A stretch of DNA of 64,000 nt, taken from positions 18,476 to 82,475 of the forward strand of contig MGVC01000005.1 of NCBI GenBank assembly GCA_001800285.1, read 5' to 3'. The notes under the pieces are model-generated. The model saw nothing but the letters and a program-made list of their open reading frames with translations, was not told where the DNA came from and ran no database searches. The position numbers and the translations under genes were made by a program. The DNA is from Elusimicrobia bacterium RIFOXYA2_FULL_39_19. Lineage in GTDB: Bacteria > Elusimicrobiota > Endomicrobiia > CG1-02-37-114 > XYA2-FULL-39-19. Shown piece by piece: positions 14,101 to 37,594 of this stretch. The stretch's first letter is position 1. Each line of letters starts with the position of its first letter.

Positions 14101-17100
14101 CCTGCTGCATGTAGGAGTAAGTAATAGGCTGTGTGGTGCCTTCAAGTTGGTAATAAGCGGCAATATCCGTTAACTGCGCATAAACTTTCGGCGGTGATTT
14201 TTCTACTGCCCAGGTGGTGGTAACTATTTCAAAATTGGCCTGGGACACACCAATAGTTCCTGAAGTTTGTATAGACTGGTAACTCTGCAACCGTAACCCA
14301 AAATATGTACCGGTAGTTGCGCTGGTGGCTATGCGCACTGCAATGAAATACGTTTTAGGTAAAGTATTTACTGAAACTTCTGGTTTTACGCTTAAATTTC
14401 TGAAGTACCAGGCGTCAGTGCCCGCATCATACTCAGCATCACAAAGTTTAGTGTCTGTTGGTTGGCCGCCACTTACAAGTTCCGGGTCAAAGTAATAGTT
14501 GCCGCTTGCGTCATAGTAAAGACTCATCTTACTAATACTGCTGGAAGGCGTATTGCCAAATTTTTCTACTTTTATCTGTTCCAGTTTTTCTGTAAGATTG
14601 GCTTCCACAGGCAGGGTTACCATAGTAAGTCCGGCCATACCAAACGGCTGGAAGTTTTCTACAATATCCCCGTCACCCTGATACACTTTCTTAGAAATAA
14701 CTCTTGATAGATAATTAGAACCTCTCAACAAATTTTCCGGGTCTAATATCGGTGTTACTTTTATGCCTGAAGTTACCAGGTTCGCATCTGAATGTGCTGT
14801 TTCAACTCTTGTGCTGTCATTAGTCCAGCCGTACACTACACCATCCGCAGGATAATCCAGCGCCTGAGTAACAGGAGATGCATAATGAGTAGCGCTGATT
14901 TTTAGTGATTCCTGCATCTGGTTGATTACCTGCAACCCCTGCCAGACACCGCTGTCACTTTCTGTATAAGCATAATAGGTTGCACTGCCGGGCATAGCTC
15001 TTAGTGTTACTGCGGTAGTGGAGCCGGTATGTGCAAACTTTATTATACCTTTATAATACTGACCGTTGGTGCTATCGCCGGATGCCACATTACCAAACCG
15101 GTCTCTGGCTTTTACGGTAACCGTGCCGTTTGAATTTACCGGCAATGGATTTGTTAAGGGATAACTGTGGTGAATTGTAAAAAACCTTGCAGGAGCAGGA
15201 GTGATATACTGGTTCTGTGTTGCAGATACTAACTGTATTGAACCGCAGGTTCCCTCAGCTCTCAATGTACTGGTACCGGCTTTTGTATCAAAGAAATATA
15301 TGGAATGCTCTGAAGAACCCGGGGGTATAATACCCGGCAGGAAACCGCCCTCGCAAATACTGGGCCAGTCAGCGCTAAGCATTAAATTTTTTAAAGGGTT
15401 TTCACCGGCACGGGCAGAAGTTGAATTTGTACAGGTATAAACTATGCTTGTAGCATCAGAAGAAATAGTAACATTATCTGACTGGTCCCTTAACTGGATA
15501 GTTATCACTGTAACGGTTTGAACACGGTTTGAATAAGAGCTTAATGGAACAGGTAAAACGGCTGATGAAAACGGATTGTAGCCTTGCACGGAATATGTAG
15601 AAACAACACTTCCTAAATTTCCGGAGCCGGTATACGCAATGGTTGTACCAGCAATTAATCTTCTTGATTCCGTTATAAAAACAAAATGATGGGGGTTCCC
15701 CGCAACTACTGAATAAGTCTGCACAGCTACAGCCCAATCTGTCTTTGCCGGGTTCTGCGCAGTTATTTGAAAATTCCCCAGATTGGTATCTATCATGTAA
15801 AAACTGGTGGTGTCATCACCTATATTTAACGTAACAATATCAACCGCAGGTTTTGCTACCCACCCGGAAGTAATATTTGGCGAAGCAAACCTCACATTCC
15901 CTGTACCGGTAGAATTAAGGTCAAAGATACTCATAACTTCTTCACCTGTAATTACCGGTGACGGGTTGGAAAACTTGTCCTGTGTCTGCAGTAAAAAAGC
16001 TGATGATGTAGTACCGGCCGCCAATATCTGATGAGATGATATTATGGCCAGTTTCTTTATTGGTGATGCCGTTATCGGTACGTATTGGCCGGAGCCCGGT
16101 GTTTCCCAACTTCCGCTTGAAGCTTTTACATGAGGCATGGTGGAAGCAGCAATATTATATGGCGGATAAGTTTTTGATGCTTTTGTATCTGCATACCAGA
16201 ACTGGGTGGCATATTGGCCGGCTGAAATTGAAGCCGTTGAGGTGTGCATCCACGGTGAAGATGTAAGTGAGAAGGAATAATTTCTGCCGTATTCCGTAGT
16301 GGCAATAGTATCCACTTCGCTTTCAAACGTTAACCTGTGCAAATAATCTATGCGCAATGAATTACCTGCCCCGGAATCACTCTGCAGGTTCATGGTAGTG
16401 TCTACGTTTACAGCTTTCGGGTTGCCGTAAGTATCCTGTGTTTCTATTTCAAGCACCTGCAAGCTATTCTGGTTGTTATAAACTATACCCGCCAGTAACG
16501 GCAGTGTGGTTGAAGGAATAACATCAAAACCTACCTGAGTTATAGCGCCCGGGTTTACATTAAATGTTGTTGAACCAACATAGATACCATACTCAACAGA
16601 AGCTGTCCATTTACCTATTGACGGACGCGCAGGCAGAGCGGCGGTAGCCGTGCCCTGAGAACCGTCTTCGCCTGCAGGCCATGAAGCATACATATCTGAA
16701 TACCTGAATGATGCCTGTGAATTGGCTGCAGGTACCGGCCATACTGCCGCGGACCATATAGGTATAGCTACATCATACATGCTCAGCATAGTATCGGTAG
16801 TTTTATTCCAATATTTCTTCTGTGAATTTAGTACAGAAGGTGAATCAGTTTTCAGCTGGGTGCCGATAGAAAGAGAAACTATGTTTGTTTCACCCGTCGG
16901 GTTATTCCAGTAATCGCGTTTTTCAAAAGTAAATACGGTAGATTTTATGTTACCCGCAGAAGCTTCAATGTCTGACGGTGTAGTTACAAACTGGAAGCGG
17001 TATAAATCACCGCCGGTAGTCATAATGTTTACAGATTTACCTGTAATGGTTGCACCCGCAGCGGTAGATACCTGCACCTTGGCATAATGGCCTCCGGTAG

Positions 17101-20100
17101 TGGATACCTCATAGTATAATTCTTTGCCTAGGCCGCCCACTTCACCATTGCTGTCGGTTGTAGTAGAAGTAATTACATTGCCGGAAGCATCTTTTATAGT
17201 TCCTGAAGAACCAAATACATCCACTACACTTAATACCGCGGAAATATTTGAACTTGAAACCTGGTTTTCATAAGAGTCGGCAATAAACGCTTTTACCTGC
17301 TGACGGTTAGGCACGCCGCCGGAGATGCCCGCTTTTACATAGATCGGGTCGGTCCACGGGCTTGGTATAGCAAATGCAAACTTGCTGGGGTCTCCCGGCC
17401 TTACTTCTATTACCGGTCTGTTTGAATATCCTGACCTATTGGCATCTATCAGGGAATCTGTGCTCTGGCGCCAGTTTATCCAGCGGGTACCAGCCTTTTT
17501 TAGTTGAATGGTAAATAAGTGTGAACCGGCATCTGCGTCAGTAAACACATAGTGTTCTCCGCCGCTGCCGGGTAGAGGTTCTGGATTCTGCAGTGAATTA
17601 TCAAAGTCCGTAGGAGCAATTTCTGCCAAGAACTGCACTTCACCGGTGTATCTGGTGCTTCCGGTAGAACATATATTGTGGTATCTGTCTTTTACATTTA
17701 TTCTTACATTGTAATCTGAACCAGCATAAGCCCAGGTAGAGCCGCGCACAGGGTCAATATAGCTTGTACCCTGCATGTAGTAGGCGGCGTCCGGCCATAT
17801 TCTTATCTGGCTGGATTCTTTAGAAGTATATTTTACAGCCGCGGTTGACCAGTCAACCGACACGCAGGTCCAGGAAGAAGAAGCAGTCAACGGCCTTACG
17901 CTGAAGGCTCTTGAACCGAAAGCCAAGCACTGTATGGTTGGCTCAGAATCCTGATAATCCCAGGTGGTTACCGTGCAGGAAGGCATATCTACACCTGACA
18001 TAATCCTGTTATACCAGATATCTGTTAATACAACATCTATGTTAAAGGCATCCCCGGCTGTATGCACAGTTGGCTGGGTATCGGTCCTGCCGTAAGGAGC
18101 AATGTTCCATTTTCCGGGAACGTGGGTTTCACCCGGCACCACCACAAGTAAAAATGCCGGCGAAGATGGATTTACTGTAAACTGCCTGCTGCTGACATCT
18201 GTAATATATCTCGGGTCAGAACCATCAACATCCTTGGTCCAGAGCATATGCCAGGTAGCAGCAGTTTTGAGCTGTATTTGAAAAGTATTGCTGGCGCTTA
18301 TGTCGCCGAGTGGTGACGTGGATGAATTGGCATCATAAGGGTCATTGGTTTCTACCGTCACTTCAGGCATGGTTATTCCGGGTAGTGACGGAAATATTCC
18401 TTTATTATAAGTATTGTAGTAGTTATCTACTAAGTTTACTGTTACTTCAAACACAGTACCGGCAGTCTGGGTTACCGGAGAACCTGTTTTACCGTTAGCA
18501 GTGCTAACATTTAAACCCCATGCCGGCGTTTCACCAGGAAGTATTATCTGGAGATGGTTCGGAGTGCCCGGTAGTACAGTGAAAGTGGATACGGTATAAT
18601 CCGGTGCACTGTTTGGATATTTTGTATAAGTACCATAAAGTTCTTCCGCAACTGCATAGTGGTAAGTGGCGGCACGTTTTAAACCAGTAGTGAAACTGGC
18701 TGTCTTGTAACCCGGGTCTGTACCGGTAATTGTTATCTGAGCTGGTTCTACATTATAAGGATCCGTAGGAGTGTATAGAACAATGGTTCCCTCTGCACCG
18801 GATACAATATTGAAGTTGCTGTCTGTAATGGCCACAGTAACATCAAATGGGGCACCAGCGGTTTGTTGTGATGGACTGCCTGTTTTACCATAAGGTGAGT
18901 TCATGTCAAAGTTTTGGCCTGGTAAAAGAACCAGAAGTTTTGAAGCTGTGTTGCTAACAACCGGGACCTTTGAGCTGGGCTGGGAATTAACCATAATTCC
19001 GGGATATCCCTCACCTTCCACCCAGCTAAATGCCGACATTCTTATACGCCAGCCGGTATTGCTGGATGTTGAAAAAACCCATTTTTCAGAATCATCTAAA
19101 ATATATTGTCCGTTTGAAACCCATATACTTCTCCCAGTTACCTGCGGGTCGTTAGGGTCACCGTCTGCTCCATCAGACATAAGTGTTAGAGTAGGATTTT
19201 CATCAGTCTGGTTATAACATTGGTCCAGGCATAAAACAGTTGTTTTAAAACCCACACCAGCAACCTGTGCTGTTGGGTTGGAAGCTTCCGTTTTTCCCGG
19301 TTGAGAGCCGGTAACTTTACCGTCAACATGGGTTTCACCCGGTACCAATATCTGAATTCTGTAGGGAACATTTGTAGTAATGGCTATGCTCTGGGTATAA
19401 TCATATTTATAATTACTGCAATAATCTGTAGTTGCTGTGATGATAGTATTTTTCTTTGTTACAAGCGTAATGCCAAATGTCGTAGTCCCGGAAAAAAGAG
19501 TTTTTGTACTGGGGTGCGTGTCATATAAATCATCGGTAATTATGCTGACATTTATTCCGGTAGTAGTTACTGAATTGTAATAGTCATCACATGCATCTAC
19601 GGTTACATTAAACGATTCTCCCGCTTTATGGCTGGTTGGATAATTATTGGACATTCTGCCTCTTGTAGAAATATTACCGGCATCCGGTAATTCCCCTGGA
19701 GCAAGAATTCTCAATCTTTTAGCACTTCCTGGAATTATGTTAACAATATTTGAATCATATGTACCCAGGCTTCCGGTTGCCCTAACTGTCCAGGTGGAAG
19801 CAGTATTCATCATTACGTTATTCCACACATTCTGTCCCATAGTTAAGCCCTGGCTTCTGGAATAACTACAATAAGGGTCTGTTACCGTTACAGACACCCC
19901 TCCCATTACAGCAGTGGAACATAAGTTATAATAATTATCCGTAACACGCACAGTTACAGGAAACACTACACCAGCTGTCTGAAAACTAACGCTATAATTT
20001 TTTCCTCCGGTTCCGTCACCAATTGGCTGCTGGGTTACATTTTCTCCATAAGGAGGCTTGCCGGGAGCAGGCACTTCATTCGGCAAGATTACATGGTAAC

Positions 20101-20917
20101 GTGTAACTAAATTCGGATAAACCCTTATTTCAGAACTTGTACCGGTTGATAACCAGATATCGTTGCCATTATAATTAAGAGCTTCTGTTGGATATGCTTT
20201 TACATAATGCGTTGCATAACCTGTCAGACCTGCCATTTCTGCATTAAAAACAGTTATGGTTGTTATACTTGAACCATTAATCAAACAAACATAATTTGTT
20301 TTTGATCCATATTGATCGGTAGATTCAACATACACTATGGGGTTTGCGTCAGAAATAGTATTCCATTGTAAATCTGTGGCTTTTATTGTTATGGCAAATG
20401 GTTGGCCTGCAGTAAATCTTGAAATCGGTGTTCCTGATTTTCCAGTTGAAGAACCCGGATTTTGTGTTTCGCCGGGAACTAAAATAAGCAACTTTGATGG
20501 ATCGGAAAGCGGGTAGGCTGTTGTATTATTTGAAACACCTGAAAATAATTCCAAGGGTCCTGAAGAGACCCAGATTCTAAAATAGTATAACTTATCGCTT
20601 TGAAGGCCTGTTATTACGTAATTCTGTCTGTTCCCGGAATTAACAGAACCTGTTGATAATACCAGATTTCCGCTTGTGCCCGTACTCCAGGCAATACTTT
20701 CAAAAGTTGATTTTTGAATTTCATACCTGCTCCCAACGGGTATAGTAAATGGGCCTGGATAGGTCCAAATTAAACGGACCTCATAAGAGTTCTGACCGGT
20801 AACAGCCGAAAGATCAGTTACCGCTAAAGATTGAGCAAATATGTTTTGAATACTTATAACAAGTATAAGAATACAAAACATAATTCTGATATTTATCACT
20901 TTATTCTTAAACATCAT
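8183..20917 (-). CDS. Giant (4244 aa) secreted cell-surface repeat protein / putative adhesin with a T9SS-type C-terminal sorting domain
   Basis: Uninterrupted 12.7 kb ORF with a GAGGAAAAATG RBS. Features: signal peptide (aa 1-28), an FN3-like segment (aa 33-120), two internal module families (listed separately below), Ig-like segments, and a C-terminal LVYPNP...GGYLAVIVSSTGERKVFKLGIIK. Confidence 0.9.
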   Translation of the reverse strand: MMFKNKVINIRIMFCILILVISIQNIFAQSLAVTDLSAVTGQNSYEVRLIWTYPGPFTIPVGSRYEIQKSTFESIAWSTGTSGNLVLSTGSVNSGNRQNYVITGLQSDKLYYFRIWVSSGPLELFSGVSNNTTAYPLSDPSKLLILVPGETQNPGSSTGKSGTPISRFTAGQPFAITIKATDLQWNTISDANPIVYVESTDQYGSKTNYVCLINGSSITTITVFNAEMAGLTGYATHYVKAYPTEALNYNGNDIWLSTGTSSEIRVYPNLVTRYHVILPNEVPAPGKPPYGENVTQQPIGDGTGGKNYSVSFQTAGVVFPVTVRVTDNYYNLCSTAVMGGVSVTVTDPYCSYSRSQGLTMGQNVWNNVMMNTASTWTVRATGSLGTYDSNIVNIIPGSAKRLRILAPGELPDAGNISTRGRMSNNYPTSHKAGESFNVTVDACDDYYNSVTTTGINVSIITDDLYDTHPSTKTLFSGTTTFGITLVTKKNTIITATTDYCSNYKYDYTQSIAITTNVPYRIQILVPGETHVDGKVTGSQPGKTEASNPTAQVAGVGFKTTVLCLDQCYNQTDENPTLTLMSDGADGDPNDPQVTGRSIWVSNGQYILDDSEKWVFSTSSNTGWRIRMSAFSWVEGEGYPGIMVNSQPSSKVPVVSNTASKLLVLLPGQNFDMNSPYGKTGSPSQQTAGAPFDVTVAITDSNFNIVSGAEGTIVLYTPTDPYNVEPAQITITGTDPGYKTASFTTGLKRAATYHYAVAEELYGTYTKYPNSAPDYTVSTFTVLPGTPNHLQIILPGETPAWGLNVSTANGKTGSPVTQTAGTVFEVTVNLVDNYYNTYNKGIFPSLPGITMPEVTVETNDPYDANSSTSPLGDISASNTFQIQLKTAATWHMLWTKDVDGSDPRYITDVSSRQFTVNPSSPAFLLVVVPGETHVPGKWNIAPYGRTDTQPTVHTAGDAFNIDVVLTDIWYNRIMSGVDMPSCTVTTWDYQDSEPTIQCLAFGSRAFSVRPLTASSSWTCVSVDWSTAAVKYTSKESSQIRIWPDAAYYMQGTSYIDPVRGSTWAYAGSDYNVRINVKDRYHNICSTGSTRYTGEVQFLAEIAPTDFDNSLQNPEPLPGSGGEHYVFTDADAGSHLFTIQLKKAGTRWINWRQSTDSLIDANRSGYSNRPVIEVRPGDPSKFAFAIPSPWTDPIYVKAGISGGVPNRQQVKAFIADSYENQVSSSNISAVLSVVDVFGSSGTIKDASGNVITSTTTDSNGEVGGLGKELYYEVSTTGGHYAKVQVSTAAGATITGKSVNIMTTGGDLYRFQFVTTPSDIEASAGNIKSTVFTFEKRDYWNNPTGETNIVSLSIGTQLKTDSPSVLNSQKKYWNKTTDTMLSMYDVAIPIWSAAVWPVPAANSQASFRYSDMYASWPAGEDGSQGTATAALPARPSIGKWTASVEYGIYVGSTTFNVNPGAITQVGFDVIPSTTLPLLAGIVYNNQNSLQVLEIETQDTYGNPKAVNVDTTMNLQSDSGAGNSLRIDYLHRLTFESEVDTIATTEYGRNYSFSLTSSPWMHTSTASISAGQYATQFWYADTKASKTYPPYNIAASTMPHVKASSGSWETPGSGQYVPITASPIKKLAIISSHQILAAGTTSSAFLLQTQDKFSNPSPVITGEEVMSIFDLNSTGTGNVRFASPNITSGWVAKPAVDIVTLNIGDDTTSFYMIDTNLGNFQITAQNPAKTDWAVAVQTYSVVAGNPHHFVFITESRRLIAGTTIAYTGSGNLGSVVSTYSVQGYNPFSSAVLPVPLSSYSNRVQTVTVITIQLRDQSDNVTISSDATSIVYTCTNSTSARAGENPLKNLMLSADWPSICEGGFLPGIIPPGSSEHSIYFFDTKAGTSTLRAEGTCGSIQLVSATQNQYITPAPARFFTIHHSYPLTNPLPVNSNGTVTVKARDRFGNVASGDSTNGQYYKGIIKFAHTGSTTAVTLRAMPGSATYYAYTESDSGVWQGLQVINQMQESLKISATHYASPVTQALDYPADGVVYGWTNDSTRVETAHSDANLVTSGIKVTPILDPENLLRGSNYLSRVISKKVYQGDGDIVENFQPFGMAGLTMVTLPVEANLTEKLEQIKVEKFGNTPSSSISKMSLYYDASGNYYFDPELVSGGQPTDTKLCDAEYDAGTDAWYFRNLSVKPEVSVNTLPKTYFIAVRIATSATTGTYFGLRLQSYQSIQTSGTIGVSQANFEIVTTTWAVEKSPPKVYAQLTDIAAYYQLEGTTQPITYSYMQQGESDIGMLRVAFSAPMFQGAISEIKVGRTGTGQDYDIVGVKIYMDGKDSSPNDGRIDAGSNPNGALEPGGDDALTNWVPFTDRSAQCMLSTPQLIDCTSRYFFITYKIENSATPGYTHGAQINGITLLEGAMQSYASIESTKVVVTATVDELNVYNVNKQETSVSSVNFTVTGVVTQGDANITVMKLTMATVQRTGLWGGLKLDRSIYRNATSGVPEGTLSLPTDVDKIQLWYDSNNDGMFEVTDSMVVDQNPQFSLMEFPVSELAESINESASVIEVADIGVFFPPFCSVPKAPGKLIIDDNGDPSKLEIVTYTGVDEDNNLFTGVVRGQDKTTAKSHTSGAIVSGPARLDIVGDVSGVQEIRQTPKNYFITFDYSPVCTVDASLKLGVEIPSTGYFTINSPDYMGNVQAQVGLRSPRNNQWIGTEWAATGWTESYVSQVKEYPDDVLVKPTDYIYTQYLVQGSVDNVMAQFTLETDLSEALWYAIRIYSTGTASYDGGAVQEEVPVVKVWYDANNDRMLNKSPVTPYFYAGTDYDVLVGSGTFSNAGDALATLIRFNSSKVQEIITAARAGVAKSQRYFITYDISETALTTNPRTGDPKNLGVRLTAESFPTDEDNLVQTEDDFISEPDNLDDIGLPWKSTLKTIASSPRTIFVKSAPIFSDDDPKETGTLSTYEVPRLSGNLSAGADVLYLFSNDSLGRPTPTLAIPASGYAVIESEIIKYTGKTANSITGITRGVLGSFAASHSSGVVFGVQVTQGVKNFAVEKLDLWADGFQVEMGTITITRTTPSYLLFGADSDLLNIKVYRDDNGNSRLDRFASPEYRGIVTADTLVGSGVYDNSRGRLYLNDPAINRGYILVTTTPTAYFITYDVSPSAKFSHPLISWQNEIIGAEITGEDKIGVNHPSEEMRHRVSTYVPIGLGEIPAFPIKTANMPIVATVDTVYITPSSELMSTVERYAENVPVIQLSMKTNRNTALWESIKVNLTGTGVDADVSKIKIWKVITSTSEYSVFESTVMINSQPCGLITYGSDTFTEKAATLLLKTEDNYYDARTITATLQTYYLTYDISQFAQISKTVGASILDKTYFTVQVPDGVEFLWPTAPFITQTAEIKEVQVAVSATVSDSAYYVHFASGAFQSQSNVEMMRLKLRTDKSNCNWDAIQVERTGTGGPLDQTKPEGRNSDVKYIKIFRDANYNNILDADDQCISEAETKISSLCSDGVYYNYISIYTPLPFDLIVESTITLTGTFPTGQQQLLVKAGDEIMRYSLAGTTITPTGPKPFLRIVERGKYGTVRKQLNSGDLIKKVDMFDLSNDLSKTKMIYLTNIQKLNPSNQTYFIAYDMGDNAVAGNTIGLKIPDSGWIKLRLPHDVSPLLVLETNTGVQLGNSTSFDYCKTSLLPVTPIGLIVKSENYAPVYTKYGSKNVPLMLLRLKTNTNHALLTNITLKQTGTVETSLIPGKGQGDFSCLSIWKEATSAAFPYGDGKFDATTDVFISSIPHSTGANPNMNFVSGMASLSIESTGLYISTAEVKLYIVGDVGYTDLSMNSTENDYTGIRLEEFSGLTIVPQTMVSDKNNTFPYKSSEFRITNISNYVDLPKVEITAPKEGEKISGNRITLTSEITSGESSDIRYVYFQYRKASEDEWHNIYSTGSLFTNPDATYPYNYFWDVSNESDFLQGNYQLRCVAYDKTGNYDNNPETVNVVIDRISPDMEEKIQNGVPEKTQKIYNNVENSIKLADINKKHFTEIIIPEGALSGSFDLVKVAINPLSIPSSDRKYKSAGMFRSIELASGQKTLLKNVTIIIAYADEDNDGIIDDTDMREENIKILYYDESSRIWKKDSETTVDKINNTASIQVGHFSLFGIFAAASNNLDNVLVYPNPYVPYDGADDNGIPYSQGNSQSGIVFENLTEAVKIYIYTVSGELVFDSYIESSGTFNWDVKNNNGSELASGGYLAVIVSSTGERKVFKLGIIK
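8186..8494 (-). other. C-terminal sorting domain (T9SS type A CTD / FlgD-Ig-like), aa 4142-4244 of the giant protein
   Basis: NLDNVLVYPNPYVP...VKIYIYTVSGELVFDSY...FNWDVKNNNGSELASGGYLAVIVSS...KVFKLGIIK. This matches the PNP start, the strand pattern and the terminal K-x-x-K typical of Por-secretion tails. Confidence 0.6.
9398..14644 (-). repeat. Eight divergent ~180-290 aa protein modules (aa ~2092-3840)
   Basis: Each module has [LM]xLx(8-12)Wxx[IL]xVxxTGTG..., then [IV]K[IVL][WY]xDxNxN/DGxxD, and ends in x-YF[IL]TYD[IV]S....G. The YF motif occurs at aa 2189, 2373, 2641, 2851, 3138, 3333 and 3608. Asp/Asn-rich loops occur at aa 2134-2144, 2313-2329, 2503-2514, 2783-2794, 3077-3089, 3460-3476 and 3750-3760. 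Confidence 0.7.
17768..20491 (-). repeat. Seven tandem ~120-140 aa protein modules (aa ~143-1050)
   Basis: Motif: LxI[LV][LVA]PGE-x(5-20)-GK[TS]G.P..QTAG..F.VTV...D..[YW]N. It starts at aa 143, 275, 402, 520, 660, 789 and 922. Examples: LLILVPGETQNPG..GKSGTPISRFTAGQPFAITIKATDLQWN and HLQIILPGETPAW..GKTGSPVTQTAGTVFEVTVNLVDNYYN. Confidence 0.75.
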
Positions 20918-21129
20918 TTTTCCTCAAATACCTACCCCGTGCAGTTTTCATCCTGATCTATCCTTTTACAATAGGATATCTGGATATTGCTCATAAAAAA
21001 AAACAATTTGAAAACTATCGCAGGGGTAAAGTGAAAACGATATCCTGTGAACAAAGATGTTTGGAATACAGGGTAAACGTCACACATGCATCCATCCGCG
21101 GGCGATCCCGTGAAAGTCTGCTGCCGTTT

Positions 21130-21168
21130 AAAAAACCGAGTGAAAGCATTGGAAAATGCCACTCGGTT
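21130..21168 (-). terminator. Intrinsic terminator in the giant-gene leader, candidate riboswitch expression platform
   Basis: The minus strand reads AACCGAGTG-GCATTTTCCAATGCTTT-CACTCGGTT followed by TTTTAAA: a perfect 9 bp stem plus a U tract. It lies ~70 nt after the aptamer and ~210 nt before the start codon. Confidence 0.65.
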
Positions 21169-21234
21169 GAGTTTACGACACTGTAACCTTACTGCGGTTT
21201 TTGGCGGCCTGGCGGTCATTGGACATTCCTCTTT

Positions 21235-21340
21235 TTTAGGCGTCTGCGCTTCAACTCCCTAGAACCGTTGGAGTCAGGCGTCCTTTAGACCCATAGCTTT
21301 GCGCCCGTCGGTTTCCCGGCGTTTGCTTTTATCAATTTTT
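21235..21340 (-). promoter_or_regulatory. c-di-GMP-I (GEMM-I) riboswitch-like aptamer
   Basis: The minus strand reads AAAAGCAAACGCCGGGAAACCGACGGGCGCAAAGCUAUGGGUCUAAAGGACGCCUGACUCCAACGGUUCUAGGGAGUUGAAGCGCAGACGCC. It lines up with the Vibrio Vc2 aptamer as I recall it (GGGCAAACCAUUCGAAAGAGUGGGACGCAAAGCCUCCGGCCUAAACC...). Shared elements: GCAAAC, a 6 bp hairpin capped by a GAAA tetraloop, G(A)CGCAAAGC, and a GGxCUAAA receptor-like segment. The long 3' helix closes as GGGUCU/AGAC(G)CC. Confidence 0.65.
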
Positions 21341-21398
21341 GTCAGTTTTGGTTTTGTAGAGCCAAGGTAATTTGTGCTTTTTGTCACACCCTGATATG

Positions 21399-21427
21399 TA
21401 TATAGTATGGAAAGATAGTAAAGTCAA
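21399..21427 (-). promoter_or_regulatory. Sigma70-type promoter candidate for the riboswitch / giant-protein transcript
   Basis: Minus strand TTGACT (21422-21427), 17 nt spacer, TATATA (21399-21404). Confidence 0.45.
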
Positions 21428-21450
21428 GGCTTATTTACATAAACTTTACC

Positions 21451-21494
21451 GATGATTACTGCGGATTTGGGGTTTTAGGATTTGAGGTGACTAA
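21451..21494 (+). repeat. Single-arm array of ~8 nt units related to the liv-region repeat units
   Basis: GATGATTA CTGCGGATTTG GGGTTTTA GGATTTGA GGTGACTA. I found no complementary arm nearby. Confidence 0.4.
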
Positions 21495-21514
21495 AATTTC
21501 TGCTATTTGGTGTG

Positions 21515-22141
21515 TTATTTTATGCCGTATTCATCAAAAAGATGAACCTGATGGCGGCATTTGGGGCATGATATTTTGAAGATGTCCGGCCTTGCAATGT
21601 CTTTTATTTCGGTTTTGGGTTTATTGTTTTGGCTTAAATCCATTGATTGCTGGTAGGTTGAAAAAAGCGCGTAATTTCCGTAAGCCATGTGGCCTAATTT
21701 ATTAAACACCCACAGCAACTGGCTTATAGGGGCAATTACAGTGCTGCATTTTTCACACAGGAGCAGTTCTTTTTCTACGCCGGAAAATAGCGTTTTTCTG
21801 TCAAAGGTTGCCAGGTCAAATTCTGTATTGGAAAGTTTTACGCCTTTCTGCGTGGTGCATAGGCGCTCGCACTGCCCGCAGAATACACAAAGGTCATAAT
21901 GCCAGATTATACTGCGGTTAAAAACACCATCATTATCAGCAGATTCTTTTACTTCTATGGCCTGTGCCGGGCAGACTTCTGCGCAGGCACCGCAGGCAAT
22001 ACATTCATCCTGATTAGGGATAGGTTTACCGCGGAATCTTTTTTCCGGGACGTGCGGTTCATAAGGGAACCTTGAAGTATAGGGCCCTTTGATTAACGCT
22101 TTTATTGCTTCGCCAAGTTCTCTAAGTTTTGGATATCTCAT
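21515..22141 (-). CDS. NuoI/HycF/MbhN-like 2x[4Fe-4S] hydrogenase subunit with a C-terminal Cys-rich extension
   Basis: CIACGACAEVCP and CVFCGQCERLC ferredoxin motifs, plus CEKCS...CPKCRH in the C-terminal third. The ORF opens with TTG at 22177. The ATG at 22141 (MRYPKLRELG) is preferred. Confidence 0.75.
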   Translation of the reverse strand: MRYPKLRELGEAIKALIKGPYTSRFPYEPHVPEKRFRGKPIPNQDECIACGACAEVCPAQAIEVKESADNDGVFNRSIIWHYDLCVFCGQCERLCTTQKGVKLSNTEFDLATFDRKTLFSGVEKELLLCEKCSTVIAPISQLLWVFNKLGHMAYGNYALFSTYQQSMDLSQNNKPKTEIKDIARPDIFKISCPKCRHQVHLFDEYGIK

Positions 22142-22200
22142 ATAAGTATTAACGCTGAACGCTAAATTGAAAATCAATAAATATAAAACCTACAATAAAG

Positions 22201-22524
22201 TTATTTGTCTTTTTCATAATGGTCACAGACTGATTTTTCCCACGGCTTTACGCCGGAAAGATGTGCGGCGCGTGAAATAGCGTGGGCAGATACCGGCGCT
22301 GTAAGCAGTAAAAATAATGCGCAAAATATTGCTTTTATACCCACATCAGTAAATCCGTGGATTACAAATACGCCCAGCATAATGCCGCAGGTGCCGAACG
22401 TTACACATTTTATTGAGGCATGAAGCCGGTTATATAAATCCGGAAGCCTTACTAAACCCAAGCAGCCAATAAAATCAAAGGTTATCCCTATTCCTATAAA
22501 TATATACCCTATTAAATCAATCAT
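22201..22524 (-). CDS. mnhG: Mrp/Mnh antiporter subunit G
   Basis: Small 3-TM protein containing GCLGLVRLPDLYNRLHA, typical of MnhG/PhaG. The ATG at 22524 overlaps the mnhF stop codon (ATGATTGA). Confidence 0.75.
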   Translation of the reverse strand: MIDLIGYIFIGIGITFDFIGCLGLVRLPDLYNRLHASIKCVTFGTCGIMLGVFVIHGFTDVGIKAIFCALFLLLTAPVSAHAISRAAHLSGVKPWEKSVCDHYEKDK

Positions 22525-22852
22525 CAAATTTTTTCCCCTCAAGATATTTTGCCAGGGCAATAGTTGCAATAAAAGACTGCAGCGCCCACGCTATGGCTAT
22601 TTCAATAAAAAATATTTTATCTGTAAATACCGTTAAAACTCCGCAAAAACCTATGACCAGAATACCCAGAATATCTATGGCTACTACGCGGTCCGCCGGG
22701 GTTGGCCCCTTGTAAATCCTCCACAGGCATAATATACAAGAAGGAATAAGAAAGTTCACCATTCTCATAAGAGGTGAAAACTCATATTTCAGATTTACGG
22801 CTATTATCAACGCTATAAGTATCAGCCCTATAAACCAGCGTAATAATTTCAT
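22517..22852 (-). CDS. mnhF: Mrp/Mnh antiporter subunit F
   Basis: 111 aa, 3 TM, with LWRIYKGPTPADRVVAIDILG typical of MrpF. Confidence 0.75.
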   Translation of the reverse strand: MKLLRWFIGLILIALIIAVNLKYEFSPLMRMVNFLIPSCILCLWRIYKGPTPADRVVAIDILGILVIGFCGVLTVFTDKIFFIEIAIAWALQSFIATIALAKYLEGKKFDD

Positions 22853-22863
22853 TTTATATACCT

Positions 22864-23358
22864 TTATTCAAATATTTTTCCCAATATTTTTTCGTATTTG
22901 CCTATTATTATTTCTGTTGCTTTATCAATATCTTCGGTTTCCACGTTCATCCAGTGAACATAGAGATAACCGTTTTCACTGTCTACGTCTACGGTGAAAG
23001 TGCCGGGGGTAAGCGTGATTGTGTTTGCCAGATAAGTCAGGGCAGAATCACTGCGTAAATTTGTTTTTACTTTTACAATACCGGGTTTTATAGGAAGGCC
23101 CGGGTGCAGTATTCTGTAGGCGCCGTCAATATTTCCTTTTACCATTTCCCATATAAATACCCATATATAATAAACCGCCCATATATATCTTGCATGCTGT
23201 TTGAATTTCCAGGGGTTACGAGTTAATATATCGCCTACAGCCCAGGCAATAAATAAACTGATAATAACACCTGTCAGTAAATACTGCCAGTCTAAAGACC
23301 AGGTAAGGGCTACCCAGAAAACAAATGCCAATAGAAATGATAACGCTCTGCTTTTCAT
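22864..23358 (-). CDS. mnhE: Mrp/Mnh antiporter subunit E
   Basis: 164 aa with two N-terminal TM segments and a soluble C-terminal part (TLTPGT motif). Its position between the D and F subunits supports the call. Confidence 0.65.
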   Translation of the reverse strand: MKSRALSFLLAFVFWVALTWSLDWQYLLTGVIISLFIAWAVGDILTRNPWKFKQHARYIWAVYYIWVFIWEMVKGNIDGAYRILHPGLPIKPGIVKVKTNLRSDSALTYLANTITLTPGTFTVDVDSENGYLYVHWMNVETEDIDKATEIIIGKYEKILGKIFE

Positions 23359-23372
23359 GACTCGCCTTTTAT

Positions 23373-24845
23373 TTATTTCATAACTGCATCAGCATAACTT
23401 GAACCGTTTATTAATACATTAACTGCCGGGTCAAGCACTATAGCTTTTAAAGCGGGAACGTAAAGCAAACCCAACCCAATACATACCGCCGCTAAAACAA
23501 TCATTGAAACACACATGGATACGGGTGCTTCCTTTATACCTGCCCACTTGCTTTTCAGCTCACCGAAAAACACGTGCTTTTGAAGCTTAAGATAATATGA
23601 CAGGGTAATTATACTTATGATTACGGCAATAAAAGCCCCCATATACTGACCGGCCTGTATGGCGGCAACAATTATCAGCAACTTGCTCCAGAAGCCGCCG
23701 AAGGGCGGTATGCCTGATATGGACATGGAACCTATTATTGAAGTTATGGAAGTAACGGGCATTTTTTTCCCGAAACCGCCCATTTCACGGATATCGCGGA
23801 TATCATCTGCGGCATTTACTACGGCACCGGCAGTCATAAACATTAATGCTTTTGCATAAGCATGGTTTACCAGGTGAAATAAAGCCGCAAAATAACCCAG
23901 CGGCGTACCCAAACCCAAAGCAAAAAAGATATAGCCAATCTGGCTGATGGTTGAATAAGCCAGCATACGTTTAATATCATTCTGATAAACTGCCAGTATA
24001 CCGCCAAGAATAATTGAAGCCGTGCCCATAATCAGAAATGTTTTGCTTATCAGCAGGGTTATACCAAACACGTTAAACATAACGCGCAGTAATGTATAAA
24101 TACCCAGGGATTTTACCAGCACACCGGATAATAATGCTGAAATAGGAGACGGCGCCGAAGAATGTGCGTCAGGCAGCCAGGCATGAAAAGGAACAATGGC
24201 TGATTTCATGCCGGCACCGATTAAAAATAATACAATTACAAAACTAATCAGTTTATTGTCAGGCTTTTGTGCCAATATCTGCGCCATGTCCGCCATATTC
24301 AAAGTTGATGTGTAAGCATAGAGAAGGCAGACACCCATTAGAATAAACAACAAACCAACAGTATTAAGAACCGCATATTTAAAAGATGCTTCCAACTCTT
24401 CTGCGCGAGTACCGAACGCCACCAGTGCATAAGATGCCACGCCGCCTACTTCTATCCAGATAAGCAGGTTGAATAAATCTCCGGTAAGCACTGCTGCGTT
24501 CATACTGGCAAGCATAACCAGATATAGGGCAAAGTAAGTCCATTTTGAAGTATATTTACCTATGTAGCCAATAGAATAATTGGCGGCAACAAAAACAATT
24601 GTATTTATAATAACAAGAATTAAAATGCTTAACCCGTCAGCTACCAGGTTTATGCCCAGAGGCGGCGCCCAGCCGCCGATGTTGTAGGAGGTAAACCCGC
24701 CTTTAATAAGAAGTTTTAACGATAACACCATAAGAACAAAAGTAACCAGCCAGGTTATGGTATAGCTGACTTTTCTGGAATATTTTCCTGTTACGGAAAT
24801 TATAAAAGCGCCTGCTAACGGAATGATTATAAATAAAGGAAGCAT
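23373..24845 (-). CDS. mnhD: Mrp subunit D, NuoM/N-type antiporter-like subunit
   Basis: 490 aa polytopic protein with the conserved segments HAWLPDAHSSAPSPISALLSG and MLAYSTISQIGY of proton-translocating NuoL/M/N-family subunits. Confidence 0.8.
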   Translation of the reverse strand: MLPLFIIIPLAGAFIISVTGKYSRKVSYTITWLVTFVLMVLSLKLLIKGGFTSYNIGGWAPPLGINLVADGLSILILVIINTIVFVAANYSIGYIGKYTSKWTYFALYLVMLASMNAAVLTGDLFNLLIWIEVGGVASYALVAFGTRAEELEASFKYAVLNTVGLLFILMGVCLLYAYTSTLNMADMAQILAQKPDNKLISFVIVLFLIGAGMKSAIVPFHAWLPDAHSSAPSPISALLSGVLVKSLGIYTLLRVMFNVFGITLLISKTFLIMGTASIILGGILAVYQNDIKRMLAYSTISQIGYIFFALGLGTPLGYFAALFHLVNHAYAKALMFMTAGAVVNAADDIRDIREMGGFGKKMPVTSITSIIGSMSISGIPPFGGFWSKLLIIVAAIQAGQYMGAFIAVIISIITLSYYLKLQKHVFFGELKSKWAGIKEAPVSMCVSMIVLAAVCIGLGLLYVPALKAIVLDPAVNVLINGSSYADAVMK

Positions 24846-24848
24846 ATT

Positions 24849-25193
24849 TTAACCCTTGAGTTTATTGAGCTCTCTTATGTCATACGTGCCGTACTTATCA
24901 TAAATTCTCATTGCAATTGTTATAAGCAGAAAAGTTACTGCAAGGCTCATGACAACAAGTGTTAATATCATAGCCTGCACTACAGGGTCTACCATGGCAT
25001 CCGGGCGCGGCTCTGTCAGTGAAGTAAACACAGGAATAGTAGCGCCGTTTTTATAACCTACTAAAATAAGAAAGACATTCATGGAGTATTCCATAATGGA
25101 TAAACCAATAATTATTTTTATAAGGTTTCTTTTTATCAGTATTGCATAGAGGCCTAAGGTAAATAGTATAAAAGTAAGAATGTATTCAATCAT
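24849..25193 (-). CDS. mnhC: Mrp subunit C (NuoK-like)
   Basis: 114 aa, 3 TM. Size and position match MrpC/NuoK. Confidence 0.7.
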   Translation of the reverse strand: MIEYILTFILFTLGLYAILIKRNLIKIIIGLSIMEYSMNVFLILVGYKNGATIPVFTSLTEPRPDAMVDPVVQAMILTLVVMSLAVTFLLITIAMRIYDKYGTYDIRELNKLKG

Positions 25194-25657
25194 TTTTTAT
25201 CCTCGCTAAGCCTGTAAAATATCAGCGCCAGAAACACGGAAAAAAAACCCGAGGCTACCGCCAGACATATTGCCAGGTTCATCAAAGGCATTATACCGGA
25301 ACTAAAAAGTGAAAATGGTTTTCCTATATAATCTACTCCCGGAGTGCGAAAAAAGTTATACATGAAATAACCTTTTGTCATTCCCAATATTCCCAGAATT
25401 AAAAAGGAAAGAGAACCTAACCCCACAAGAAACTGTATGGTTTTATCTGTTATTCTTTTCATAGCCACTTCTTTACCGAAAGCCAGCATAACGTGCATAT
25501 AAGAAAGAGCCACAATAATTCCGCCGGCAAAGCCGCCGCCGTGCACCAGATGGCCGTTCATAATGAAGTAAATACCAAACAACAGAATAAGCACCACCGT
25601 GTATCTGGTAATAGTTTTCACTATTATGGTCATGCCTTGTTCCGGTTTTTTAATCAT
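25190..25657 (-). CDS. mnhB: Mrp subunit B-like membrane protein
   Basis: 155 aa, 4 TM, containing HGGGFAGGI, typical of the MnhB domain. Confidence 0.65.
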   Translation of the reverse strand: MIKKPEQGMTIIVKTITRYTVVLILLFGIYFIMNGHLVHGGGFAGGIIVALSYMHVMLAFGKEVAMKRITDKTIQFLVGLGSLSFLILGILGMTKGYFMYNFFRTPGVDYIGKPFSLFSSGIMPLMNLAICLAVASGFFSVFLALIFYRLSEDKK

Positions 25658-25669
25658 ATTTTTTTCCTG

Positions 25670-26191
25670 TTATTGTTTCTCTTTATAGACTTTCTTCCTT
25701 ATAATCATCAGCACCGCAATAATTGAGGCAAACGCTATAGATACCTGTGCCAGCATATCAAAAGCCCTGTAATCAAGAATAATTGCAGATACAATGTTGG
25801 GCACGCCGGTTTGTACAAACCCGTTTTTAAGGTACTCTGAACCTATTTTCATAATAGGAGTTCCGAAACCCGGTATTTCAAGCAGGGCAATGTTAGCAAA
25901 TGTAAGAAAAATACCCATCAGGATAATGCTGATAGTTGTTGCAATAAATCTTCTTTCACGCACGTTTACCTTATCTTTTATTCCTACGGCACGGATAATA
26001 ATAACAAGTGAAAGAATTTCCACTACCAGCTGTAATATTGCCAGATCCGGGGATTGTAATAAAAGAAATACAATGGATAATCCCAGCCCCACTGCGCCAA
26101 TAGCTACCACCGAACCAAGTAAATCAGCCGTACCTATGGCTATAGCGGCCGCAATAATCATAAACACCAGAATAATCTGTATCTGAATCAT
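25670..26191 (-). CDS. MbhD-like / MrpA C-terminal-domain-like membrane protein
   Basis: 173 aa hydrophobic protein located between the NuoL-like subunit and the MnhB-like gene, as in Mbh/Mrp operons. Confidence 0.55.
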   Translation of the reverse strand: MIQIQIILVFMIIAAAIAIGTADLLGSVVAIGAVGLGLSIVFLLLQSPDLAILQLVVEILSLVIIIRAVGIKDKVNVRERRFIATTISIILMGIFLTFANIALLEIPGFGTPIMKIGSEYLKNGFVQTGVPNIVSAIILDYRAFDMLAQVSIAFASIIAVLMIIRKKVYKEKQ

Positions 26192-26192
26192 A

Positions 26193-28040
26193 TTACTTTC
26201 CTAAAAAAACGTACAACAGAATGGTTAAACCCATAATGCTCATGGCAAGGTAAATATGCATATTACCTGTATGCATCAGTGCTAACGCTGAAGCGAAAGC
26301 ATTCACAATAGCTTTTCCCCAGTCATAAATATCAAACACTTTTTTCTGGGCCAGCGCATAAGTTTGATCAAATATTTTTATTTCCTTAATAGTCTGGTAA
26401 AAATCTACGCCTGTTACCCTCTGGTTTTCCGGCAGCACTTCTCCGCCGATAAATATTTTATGCCGTTTTATTACAGACCCGAGACTGAAACTCGCCAGGA
26501 AAATAATAATGCCTATAATAATACACGCTATCAGAAGCATTGTGGCCAGTTCCGGCTGCCAGAAACCAATAAGATTTCCGCTTAACTGCAGATTAAATGC
26601 TGATAATGAAGGAATAATAAAATACTTTAAAGGAAGCGCAAAGGCAAACACGCCAAACACAATACAAAGCCCGGCAAGTAAAAGCTGGGGCAGCCACATC
26701 TGCCAGTTTACTTCGCCTTTTTGTTCATTTTTTTTCTGAGCGAAAAATATTGCATGAATAAGTTTCATAAAGCTTGCCAGTGTAAGGGCGGACCCAAACA
26801 TAGCCGCCACCAAACACACTAAAGCAATAATTTGAAATTTGGGTGATGCATTTTGAAATTGTGTTATCAGCCCCTGGTAAATCATCCACTTGGAAACAAA
26901 ACCGTTAAATGGCGGAACACCTGAAATAGACATAGACGCTATAAAAAACGCCGCAAAAGTCAGCGGCATGCCCGCTTTGCCTGCCAACGCGCCCAGTTTA
27001 TCTAAATCTGTGGTACCGGTTTTCTTTTCTATGGAACCGCCGCATAAAAAAAAGCAGGATTTGTATATTGCGTTATTTAACATATGAAATATTCCGCCTG
27101 CTATGCCCACCGGGTTTCCCGTGGCAAGGCCTAATATCATATAACCAACTTGTGAAACAGCGTGATAGGAAAGCAGTTTTTTCAGGTCATGTTGTATCAT
27201 GGCCATAAAAACAGCGGCAATAATCGTAACTGCACCTATAAACATAAGAAAAGCCGTTAACGGCAAACTTAAAGAAAACAAATTAAGTGAAATTCTGGCA
27301 AGCAGATAAATACCCAGCAGTTTATCCAGTGATGCCGGAAGAAGGGCAATTACCGGGGCAGGCGTTACAGGAGCCATATCTGGTATCCATGTATGAAAAG
27401 GCATAGCCCCTGCTTTTGCAAACGCTCCTATAGCCAAACATAAAAACGCTGTAAGAGCCAGCGTTGAATCTGCGGTTGAAAGAAATATTTTATCCATCTG
27501 CAAAGTACCGGTTAAAACCCAGATAATTGCAATACCTAAAATCATAAGGCAGTCTGAACCACCTACTATGATAAAGGTTTTCTTTGCCGCATCTTTTGAA
27601 TCCGGCGAATTTGATTGTATGAGAACATAAAGCGTTAAACCCAGAAAACCCCAGAAAACAAGCATTAATATCAGATTGTTTGCCAGCACACAGCCCAACG
27701 CCGCACTTATTGACCATAAAACAGATGTATAATAAAAACTTGAAATTGAAAATTTGTCTGTTTTAGGAAAGAATTTTGTTGAATATAGTATTACCAGTAT
27801 ACCAAACAAAGCAATGAACAGCACCAGAAAACGGTTGAAATTATCTATACGGAAAAGTTCTAAACCAAAAAGCTGAAAGTTAACGGGATTTGTTCTAAAA
27901 ATAATAAAAGTCATCAGAAATACAGCAATGGAACCGGCAAGTGCAAGCAGCTCGGCAATTAGCCTCTGCTTTTTAGGAATAACTGCGCAGACAAGCCCTG
28001 CGACAAACGGCACAGCTAATAAATATAAAATTAAATCCAT
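26193..28040 (-). CDS. MrpA/NuoL-type antiporter-like subunit
   Basis: 615 aa polytopic protein with HTWIPDMAPVTPAPVIALLPAS and LLSYHAVSQVGYM conserved segments. Confidence 0.8.
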   Translation of the reverse strand: MDLILYLLAVPFVAGLVCAVIPKKQRLIAELLALAGSIAVFLMTFIIFRTNPVNFQLFGLELFRIDNFNRFLVLFIALFGILVILYSTKFFPKTDKFSISSFYYTSVLWSISAALGCVLANNLILMLVFWGFLGLTLYVLIQSNSPDSKDAAKKTFIIVGGSDCLMILGIAIIWVLTGTLQMDKIFLSTADSTLALTAFLCLAIGAFAKAGAMPFHTWIPDMAPVTPAPVIALLPASLDKLLGIYLLARISLNLFSLSLPLTAFLMFIGAVTIIAAVFMAMIQHDLKKLLSYHAVSQVGYMILGLATGNPVGIAGGIFHMLNNAIYKSCFFLCGGSIEKKTGTTDLDKLGALAGKAGMPLTFAAFFIASMSISGVPPFNGFVSKWMIYQGLITQFQNASPKFQIIALVCLVAAMFGSALTLASFMKLIHAIFFAQKKNEQKGEVNWQMWLPQLLLAGLCIVFGVFAFALPLKYFIIPSLSAFNLQLSGNLIGFWQPELATMLLIACIIIGIIIFLASFSLGSVIKRHKIFIGGEVLPENQRVTGVDFYQTIKEIKIFDQTYALAQKKVFDIYDWGKAIVNAFASALALMHTGNMHIYLAMSIMGLTILLYVFLGK

Positions 28041-28042
28041 TT

Positions 28043-29257: not shown

Positions 29258-29272
29258 TTGCTTTCCCTTGCC

Positions 29273-29333
29273 CCGTCTGCCTTTGCAGGACGGATAATTC
29301 TAATGCTCTAAGCTCTAATTTCTAATGCTCTAC
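29273..29333 (-). repeat. Intercistronic hairpin plus an array of five UAG-containing 7-8 nt units
   Basis: The minus strand after the stop codon reads TAG AGCAT TAG AAAT TAG AGCT TAG AGCAT TAG AAT. Next comes CCGTCCTGC-AAAG-GCAGACGG (an 8 bp stem with one bulge), and then the RBS of the large-subunit gene. Confidence 0.5.
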
Positions 29334-29764
29334 TTCTCCGTCTGCCTTAACGGGTATTTGCCTTCCGGCCAGTCTTCTGCCAGAAGCAATCTTTTCATAT
29401 TCGGATGATTTTTAAAATTTATGCCCAGCATTTCCCAGATTTCACGCTCAATCCATTCGGCTCCGCGGATAAGCGGTGTGATAGAATCTATTTCCGGTTT
29501 ATCTTTTTCGTTTAAGTAAACGCGCAGGGTTATGACTTCGCCTGTTTTGTCATAAGAAAAATGGTACATTATTTCAAACCCGGTCCTTAAATGAACCCCG
29601 GTGGCTGTAATGAAACGGCTTTCTAAACCGTTAAACATTATTTTTGTGCATTCAATGATGTCATGCGGATTTATTTCCAGATAATGGCGTTTCTCGTTTT
29701 TCTTGAAATAATTTTTTACTTTATTTCCCAGTTTTTCTCTTGCTTTTTCTATAATGCTTTCCAT
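29330..29764 (-). CDS. NuoC/MbhK-like hydrogenase subunit
   Basis: 144 aa with ...AEWIEREIWEMLGINFKNHPNMKRLL..., typical of the 30 kDa NuoC family. Confidence 0.8.
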   Translation of the reverse strand: MESIIEKAREKLGNKVKNYFKKNEKRHYLEINPHDIIECTKIMFNGLESRFITATGVHLRTGFEIMYHFSYDKTGEVITLRVYLNEKDKPEIDSITPLIRGAEWIEREIWEMLGINFKNHPNMKRLLLAEDWPEGKYPLRQTEK

Positions 29765-29775
29765 TTTATTCCTGT

Positions 29776-31110: not shown

Positions 31111-31111
31111 T

Positions 31112-31645: not shown

Positions 31646-31647
31646 GT

Positions 31648-32475: not shown

Positions 32476-32479
32476 ATAG

Positions 32480-37554: not shown

Positions 37555-37559
37555 GGTTT

Positions 37560-37588: not shown

Positions 37589-37594
37589 TTTATC

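Follow-up and report, generated by a model that had tools for sequence, protein, structure and literature searches.

What occupies the 600-nt gap that separates a hydrogenase Fer4 gene (stop codon at 21515) from a 4,244-codon open reading frame (ORF; start codon at 20917) on the minus strand of a 64-kb stretch of DNA from Elusimicrobia bacterium RIFOXYA2_FULL_39_19, a metagenome-assembled genome (MAG) from Rifle aquifer groundwater? We refer to the whole 64-kb stretch as the window; all coordinates are those of the window, and the riboswitch, the terminator and the regulated operon described here all lie on its minus strand. An earlier reading of the locus (the original prediction) had placed a cyclic di-GMP-I (c-di-GMP-I)-like riboswitch and a terminator in this gap, ahead of a surface-protein operon. 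Our analysis supports that reading through a covariance-model match, the terminator itself, the layout of the operon and the recurrence of the arrangement in a second genome. We conclude, with a probability of about 0.85, that a three-gene surface-protein operon carries, in its 5' leader, a cyclic-dinucleotide riboswitch of the GEMM-I (c-di-GMP-I) class. The class of the aptamer, the terminator and the gene context are established directly.

A c-di-GMP-I class aptamer in the leader

We compared the complete window with each of the 4,227 Rfam families. The RF01051 (c-di-GMP-I) model found a match on the minus strand at 21337-21200 (61.3 bits, with a gathering score of 35; E value = 1.5 × 10−9) and was covered from position 1 to position 87 of 87; no other match in the 64 kb reached its gathering score. 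This is the full-length covariance-model match by which the original prediction was to be checked. A permissive scan of the leader and its surroundings (20850-21560, E values up to 1) added only two lower-scoring matches from the same clan, RF01051 being the best of the three, and found no other RNA family there. The score lies slightly under the range of six RF01051 members from other phyla (62.8 to 80.7 bits). The leader was also richer in GC than its surroundings, as had been claimed (0.48 to 0.505 over 21100-21399 versus 0.30 to 0.44 in both flanks), and three further assemblies of this organism had the same leader sequence. The main parts of the leader and operon are as follows.

21337-21200, minus strand: c-di-GMP-I (GEMM-I) aptamer, placed by the RF01051 covariance model
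21203-21169, minus strand: linker between aptamer and terminator, with a weak AACC/GGUU hairpin, AACCGCAGU and AGUGUC...ACUC
21168-21130, minus strand: intrinsic terminator
21129-20918, minus strand: spacer that separates terminator and start codon (about 210 nt), with no Rfam match at E values up to 1
20917-8183, minus strand: giant surface-protein gene, 4,244 aa, from the ORF list
8186-7071, minus strand: gene for a PorV/PorQ-family outer-membrane beta-barrel protein
6981-6427, minus strand: 184-aa gene, 89 nt downstream of the PorV gene

Within the aptamer, the RF01051 alignment and the sequence itself define the following parts, in which the paired helices are named P1 to P3 and the junction strand between the first two J1/2; nucleotide numbers such as A20 are those of Vc2, the Vibrio cholerae prototype.

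21327, minus strand: A20, the last nucleotide of J1/2 (AUAAAA), from the alignment
21326-21301, minus strand: P2 hairpin, from the alignment
21326-21321, minus strand: GCAAAC motif, from the sequence
21315-21312, minus strand: GAAA tetraloop of P2, from the sequence and the alignment
21305-21282, minus strand: GGCGCAAAGCUAUGGGUCUAAAGG motif, from the sequence
21300, minus strand: equivalent of A47, the intercalating A, from the alignment
21298-21206, minus strand: P3, with receptor-like CUAAAG and AAUGAC, from the alignment
21278-21225, minus strand: 54-nt insertion in the P3 loop, skipped by the covariance model as a loop insertion
21205 and 21204, minus strand: equivalents of G and C92, from the alignment

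Three of the hallmarks on which the original prediction relied, namely, GCAAAC, the GAAA-capped hairpin and GGCGCAAAGCUAUGGGUCUAAAGG, were present at these positions. The fourth, a long 3' helix, also exists as P3, but its closing strand is GACCGCCAGGCC (21217-21206) and not the proposed AGAC(G)CC; AGACGCC sits within the P3-loop insertion, outside the closing strand. P2 reads GC-AAA-CGCCGG-GAAA-CCGACG-GGC-GC, with the conserved G-C and C-G closing pairs, the AAA and a single C.A mismatch in the stem. In P3, GGGUCUAAAGG and AAUGAC align to the consensus receptor strands guCUAAgg and uAuGac, and docking of the tetraloop is predicted. The core positions conserved in the RF01051 model are all intact save position 20. 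Folding predicts a small branched extension for the 54-nt insertion, and the P3 loops of the other RF01051 members that we retrieved are far shorter. The stability of the aptamer fold was unremarkable (z = -0.10), which is usual among riboswitches and hence uninformative.

The RNA thus resembles Vc2, the RF01051 prototype, in its two-hairpin architecture, its GAAA tetraloop and receptor, and its equivalents of A47 and C92. It differs from Vc2 in having A20 rather than G20, in the P3-loop insertion, in a P1 of at most about 3 bp, and in its predicted control by termination, which neither class I riboswitch of V. cholerae uses (PMC6366702).

A terminator ahead of a surface-protein operon

The perfect 9-bp intrinsic terminator described earlier was confirmed. 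Its lower stem pairs AACCGAGUG (21168-21160) with CACUCGGUU (21142-21134). Above it come a bulge of UUU and an upper stem of 5 bp capped by a UUCC loop, and six consecutive U residues (21135-21130) complete the terminator. The fold has a free energy of -16.5 kcal/mol (z = -6.26), none of 200 shuffled sequences was as stable, and the stem had pairing probabilities of 0.77 to 0.999 in the ensemble of the full leader. A scan of both strands of the window for hairpins followed by T runs found only a handful of single hairpins equally strong. The terminator begins 31 nt past the aptamer on the same strand, and chance is a very improbable explanation for a hairpin of this strength at that distance within a 5' leader.

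Two side observations concern hairpins. In the linker, AACCGCAGU (21196-21188) is an imperfect copy of the terminator 5' arm AACCGAGUG, and this copy, which stands beside the aptamer, is able to pair with the terminator 3' arm and U-tract (-14.0 kcal/mol). The strongest terminator-like site of the window lies elsewhere, at about 43955-44001 on the minus strand, where a hairpin of -29.1 kcal/mol, nearly perfect and with 19 bp in its outer stem, stands together with a T run directly after a sigma-54 activator gene (44074-45465).

The first gene past the terminator, which has a Shine-Dalgarno-like GAGG 5 to 6 nt ahead of its ATG, encodes a giant protein with an N-terminal signal peptide (recognized by eye), an fn3-like N-terminal domain and Thr/Ser-rich repeats. 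Its last 119 aa match the C terminus of PorZ (E value = 4.8 × 10−11, under the whole-family cutoff) and, more weakly and likewise under whole-family cutoffs, a type IX secretion system (T9SS)-dependent M6-like metalloprotease, PorU, Por_Secre_tail, CHU_C and FlgD_ig. Judging by its size, its signal peptide, its fn3-like repeats and the T9SS-type domain at its C terminus, this protein may be an adhesin. The next gene encodes a PorV/PorQ-family protein (NF033709 PorV_fam, 163 bits against a cutoff of 90; UPF0164), and its start overlaps the stop of the giant gene by 4 nt, so that we place both in one operon and regard them as translationally coupled. The 184-aa gene that follows matched no Pfam or NCBIfam family; it always accompanies the PorV gene in contigs of the same organism and is probably the last gene of the cassette. 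A T9SS-type C-terminal domain (8183-8545, minus strand) and a PorV/PorQ gene thus occur within one Elusimicrobia genome, and PorV/PorQ homologues are annotated across many Elusimicrobia MAGs.

The arrangement recurs in a second Elusimicrobia genome

Through homologues of the PorV gene, we reached a similar cassette in a second Elusimicrobia MAG (GCA_016204975.1, contig JACQJP010000016.1). There, an RF01051 aptamer (45.7 bits; L069:783-925, L068:7033-7104) with the canonical G20 is followed directly by a strong hairpin and a U-tract. Downstream is the gene for a secreted fn3 protein of 958 aa, which over its own last 380 aa shares 38% identity with the C terminus of the window protein (E value = 6 × 10−76), and then a gene for a PorV/PorQ homologue (42% identity). 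In contrast to the window RNA, this aptamer carries G20 and lacks both a tetraloop and a receptor, and its P1, about 14 bp long, adjoins the terminator. Its protein is 958 aa long as opposed to 4,244 aa; beyond the aptamer core, the two leaders have no sequence in common. A third PorV-linked surface-protein locus (L070) had no riboswitch. From these comparisons, the linkage of GEMM-I aptamer and terminator to PorV and to a surface protein with the shared C-terminal module is recurrent, though not universal, and occurs with both types of binding pocket.

Homologues of the giant protein itself were few and may be internal fragments of frameshifted genes; their contigs gave no Rfam match, and a scan of genome contigs with the N terminus of the giant protein gave no match. 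Plasmid DNA was also searched for similar sequence, and none was found.

Proposed mechanism and the points against it

In the mechanism that we propose, transcription would begin upstream of 21337, either from the promoter-like site described below or by read-through from the hydrogenase operon. The aptamer would then fold into its two hairpins, docked via the GAAA tetraloop and its receptor, and A20, A47 and C92 would form the junction at which a cyclic dinucleotide binds. Occupancy of the aptamer would determine whether RNA polymerase stops at the terminator or proceeds into the operon.

Two further features lie at the 5' end of the leader.

21427-21399, minus strand: promoter-like site, TTGACT (21427-21422), a 17-nt spacer and TATATA (21404-21399)
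21392-21338, minus strand: A-rich 5' leader of about 55 nt ahead of the aptamer, from the sequence

The TTGACT-17-TATATA promoter of the original prediction is present, implying a transcription start near 21392, but the match is not significant: the window holds 113 sites with an equal score (9/12, with at least 5/6 for the -35 hexamer), a density of about 0.9 per kb on each strand. A standard promoter scan did not list the site, since TATATA lacks the final T. We therefore regard this promoter as plausible and statistically unsupported. The 5' leader also contains a direct repeat of UGACAAAAA (21386-21378 and 21344-21336).

The weak statistical standing of this promoter is one of several points that weigh against a working riboswitch at this locus. 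Beside the junction, only UUG/CAA (3 bp) is able to pair as P1, and no extended P1 formed between the 5' leader and the 3' linker beat shuffled sequence. Of the positions that contact the ligand in Vc2, A47 and C92 are retained and position 20 is a noncanonical A. The window RNA is a singleton, identical in every assembly in which it was found, and hence offers no covariation, and the whole cassette from the riboswitch to the 184-aa gene (6427-21430) is absent from the closest relatives. Some class I aptamers of other genomes do not function, and among the 16 c-di-GMP riboswitches of Clostridioides difficile, 5 are nonfunctional (PMC6366702).

The remaining points concern the coupling of aptamer and terminator. 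The best upstream partners of the two terminator arms had energies of -12.1 and -14.3 kcal/mol and did not improve on shuffled sequence (means of -13.3 and -14.0). A pairing like that of the C. difficile riboswitch Cd1, between the P3 3' strand (21220-21208) and the terminator 5' arm, would cost 6.3 kcal/mol as long as the 3' arm has yet to be transcribed and 11.6 kcal/mol in the full-length RNA. The one candidate antiterminator, a hairpin of the AGUGUC...ACUC linker with the terminator 5' arm (21182-21155), is the only alternative seen in the minimum-free-energy folds of intermediate transcripts, and its stability was not significant (-6.7 kcal/mol, z = -1.6). Thermodynamically, the terminator forms with a probability near 1. 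Because no antiterminator was identified, coupled switching stays a proposal. We also noted that the P3 insertion holds ACUC..CGGUU, which is complementary to the terminator 5' arm; this match is no better than chance.

Direction of switching

Ligand and direction of switching stand apart from the points established directly, and for both we infer the reading that comparison with characterized riboswitches favors. For direction, a review cautions against carrying the sign of a switch over from one species to another (PMC6366702). In the window RNA, there is no overlap between aptamer and terminator, and both are present in the minimum-free-energy folds and in all predicted folds. Two class I riboswitches have been studied co-transcriptionally: in Cd1, an OFF switch, the two folds coexist, while in pilM, an ON switch, they are mutually exclusive (PMC9262584). 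Since the window RNA is like Cd1 in this respect, we lean somewhat toward an OFF switch, in which ligand would promote termination.

Cd1, which precedes the flgB operon of C. difficile, is similar in further ways: its terminator is distant and coexists with the folded aptamer, its P1 is minimal or absent, and its operon is very long. It differs in that its antiterminator and its OFF behavior have been demonstrated and in that its cargo consists of flagellar genes rather than a surface protein. The pilM riboswitch of Geobacter likewise has no detectable P1, and its terminator overlaps the aptamer, whereas the two are separate here.

The opposite sign, in which termination is the default and ligand promotes read-through (ON), so that high levels of cyclic dinucleotide induce the surface protein, is a serious contender that we place only a little behind. 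The terminator is very strong and is predicted to form by default, which would fit the repression/derepression design of the Bc2 riboswitch (PMC4933901); c-di-GMP mostly induces adhesive surface structures (PMC6366702); and the Geobacter A20 riboswitches are ON switches (PMC6456294). Bc2, which controls cap in Bacillus thuringiensis, is also a class I riboswitch with an intrinsic terminator on a large surface-adhesin gene (PMC4933901). Its ON behavior has been shown by experiment, and its terminated RNA of about 121 nt, with the terminator near the aptamer, is shorter than the approximately 260 nt expected here. In the known ON examples, however, the terminator uses part of the aptamer and the folds exclude each other, whereas here they are 31 nt apart and coexist, and we found no ligand-stabilized structure that would sequester either arm of the terminator.

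Binding pocket and ligand

Position 11 of the RF01051 model, the unpaired nucleotide directly 5' of P2, has G as its consensus and is A in the window RNA (21327). In Gs1761, a riboswitch for 3',3'-cGAMP (cyclic GMP-AMP), A14 lies directly 5' of P2 (C15-G40), A41 follows P2, and C75 is the second nucleotide past P3 (PMC6274999); A14 corresponds to G20 of Vc2 (PMC6140456), and model position 11 is therefore the Vc2 G20 column. The resulting pocket (A20, G21-C46, A47 and C92) is identical to that of the Vc2 G20A mutant, which binds c-di-GMP at 53 nM and 3',3'-cGAMP at 120 nM, as compared with 10 µM for cGAMP and wild-type Vc2 (PMC6140456). The same pocket should therefore bind 3',3'-cGAMP here also.

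Binding of cGAMP is not the same as selectivity for it. The natural A20 aptamer Cbe 1-2 of Clostridium beijerinckii binds c-di-GMP at 30 nM and cGAMP at 463 nM, so that both it and Vc2 G20A bind both ligands in the nanomolar range (PMC6140456). Because these two A20 aptamers are dual specific, A20 in the window RNA predicts cGAMP binding and does not predict selectivity. The window RNA differs from both in host phylum and in the genes regulated. Its physiological ligand is probably c-di-GMP, with cGAMP or dual sensing taking up the remainder of our expectation.

That the physiological ligand is 3',3'-cGAMP, or that cGAMP and c-di-GMP are integrated, is the alternative to be weighed here. The GEMM-Ib subclass, which senses 3',3'-cGAMP, is defined by an A20 in combination with C92 and a retained intercalating A (PMC6140456), and the window RNA has all three nucleotides (A20, A47 and C92); moreover, the G20A change alone moves cGAMP binding by Vc2 from the micromolar value given above to the nanomolar one. 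The window RNA is also like the Geobacter GEMM-Ib riboswitches (Gs1761, Gm0970 and pilM) in lying upstream of cell-surface or attachment genes and in its terminator-based control. Nevertheless, A20 is insufficient for selectivity, given that Vc2 G20A and Cbe 1-2 bind c-di-GMP as well as cGAMP or better. The first P2 pair is G-C, as in Vc2, unlike the C-G (C15-G40) of the cGAMP-selective Gs1761. Members with the same pocket are common in phyla without known cGAMP signaling, the homologous cassette of GCA_016204975.1 has a canonical G20 aptamer, and no cGAMP synthase is encoded in the 64-kb window, in which we found no GGDEF, EAL or CD-NTase genes; nor is the organism known to have such a synthase. 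We therefore consider a cGAMP-responsive or integrating switch unlikely; if it were true, it would imply cGAMP signaling in Elusimicrobia.

Scans of genome and metagenome contig collections yielded 46 A20-type RF01051 members in other phyla, of which six were verified. The search pattern required 7 nt, not 6, between GCAAA and the tetraloop and did not fit the window aptamer, which it left unmatched, and no relative of the window RNA was among the matches to this pattern. A20 aptamers with a G-C first P2 pair were widespread outside Geobacter, occurring in Planococcus, Paenisporosarcina, Peribacillus, Heyndrickxia, Bipolaricaulota, Thermotogae, a Nitrospiraceae MAG and Clostridia. In two alignments of such aptamers, the 5' arm of P2 was longer by one nucleotide, a feature that the pattern demanded of all of them, and in the Bacillota examples at least, a terminator lies 25 to 30 nt downstream.

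A possibly mobile cassette

The closest relatives, as judged by the Fer4 protein (68 to 70% identity), have small toxin-antitoxin-like genes immediately after the hydrogenase operon. L056 (5612-6472) is the closest of these relatives, and there only small DUF2204/AbiEii-like genes lie between the Fer4 gene and hypA, which is followed by hydG and hydE. The cassette is therefore an insertion at a variable site. In GCA_016204975.1, a tRNA gene, a gene for a phage-type integrase and an HTH_17 gene (L068:3577-5074) immediately precede the cassette, a setting that suggests a genomic island.

Taken together with the pocket, these settings raise a broader proposal, namely, that the window holds a dual-input or cGAMP-responsive A20 riboswitch outside the Deltaproteobacteria, within a horizontally mobile cassette of riboswitch, giant T9SS-type protein and PorV whose pocket differs by lineage (A20 here and G20 in GCA_016204975.1). 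We hold this joint reading to be speculative and unlikely. If it were true, cGAMP signaling would reach an uncultivated phylum, and second-messenger wiring would travel with its cargo.

Upstream genes and the possibility of a relic

The scan for hairpins and T runs found no terminator-like hairpin between the Fer4 stop codon and the riboswitch, and read-through from the hydrogenase operon is therefore possible. The terminator of the riboswitch is the first strong one after this Mbh/Mrp-type hydrogenase operon and may also end hydrogenase transcripts. Just upstream of the cluster that holds the operon (21515-33490) is a gene for a GAF-ANTAR RNA-binding antiterminator protein (33624-34343, minus strand). 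The HD-GYP phosphodiesterase that had been reported 15 kb away is indeed encoded at a distance of 15 to 16 kb (370 aa; 36442-37554, minus strand), with an HD_5 domain, the HD motif at residue 152 and the GYP motif at residue 216, and its presence in the window counts in favor of the riboswitch reading. Its gene adjoins that of a GAF-domain histidine kinase (36442-39687, minus strand, for the pair).

These surroundings bear on whether the aptamer could be a nonfunctional relic, the hairpin a constitutive terminator of the hydrogenase operon, and the giant gene driven by a promoter of its own farther downstream. Such a reading draws on the absence of any other terminator-like hairpin past the Fer4 stop, on the missing antiterminator, on the nonfunctional C. 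difficile riboswitches mentioned above and on the length of the 210-nt spacer. Yet a scan of that spacer found no promoter-like site on the minus strand, which is the coding strand, and this absence is consistent with operon transcription having to cross the riboswitch. Furthermore, the conserved core is intact except at position 20, where the nucleotide is a known functional variant, and the order of aptamer, terminator, surface protein and PorV recurs at an unrelated location in another MAG. We consider a relic improbable, and a riboswitch in the leader of the surface-protein operon remains the reading that we prefer.

Finally, the idea that the region encodes a 95-aa protein rather than a regulatory RNA can be set aside as having a negligible chance of being right: an ATG-initiated 95-codon ORF does exist (20932-21219, minus strand, extending from the 3' end of the aptamer through the terminator into the spacer), but, as the original prediction had argued, it is not a real gene, for it has no Pfam match, gene callers in the three other assemblies placed no gene across the 600-nt gap, the GenBank locus tags (A2252_08045 for the PorV gene and 08070 for MnhE) leave room only for the giant and Fer4 genes, and its ATG lies inside helix P3 in a frame that reads through the terminator.

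Significance for the Elusimicrobia

The riboswitch class is already well known, and standard Rfam annotation would detect the element, so that knowledge of the class is unchanged. The interest lies in the phylum, in a cargo that is large and T9SS-like, in the A20 pocket and in the hint that such cassettes move as units. We know of almost no experimental genetics in Elusimicrobia, and we found no paper in the literature that links RNA-level cyclic-dinucleotide control with the phylum. The A20 pocket provides a cheap and well-defined case in which to ask what natural A20 aptamers sense outside Geobacter: c-di-GMP, cGAMP or the two together. For the biology of these organisms, the riboswitch would place RNA-level cyclic-dinucleotide control in Elusimicrobia and would tie that control to the costliest gene of the window, which at 12.7 kb encodes a surface protein that has a T9SS-type sorting domain and a PorV-like partner of its own. 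Moreover, the recurrence of the arrangement in a second lineage makes it look like a regulatory habit and not an accident.

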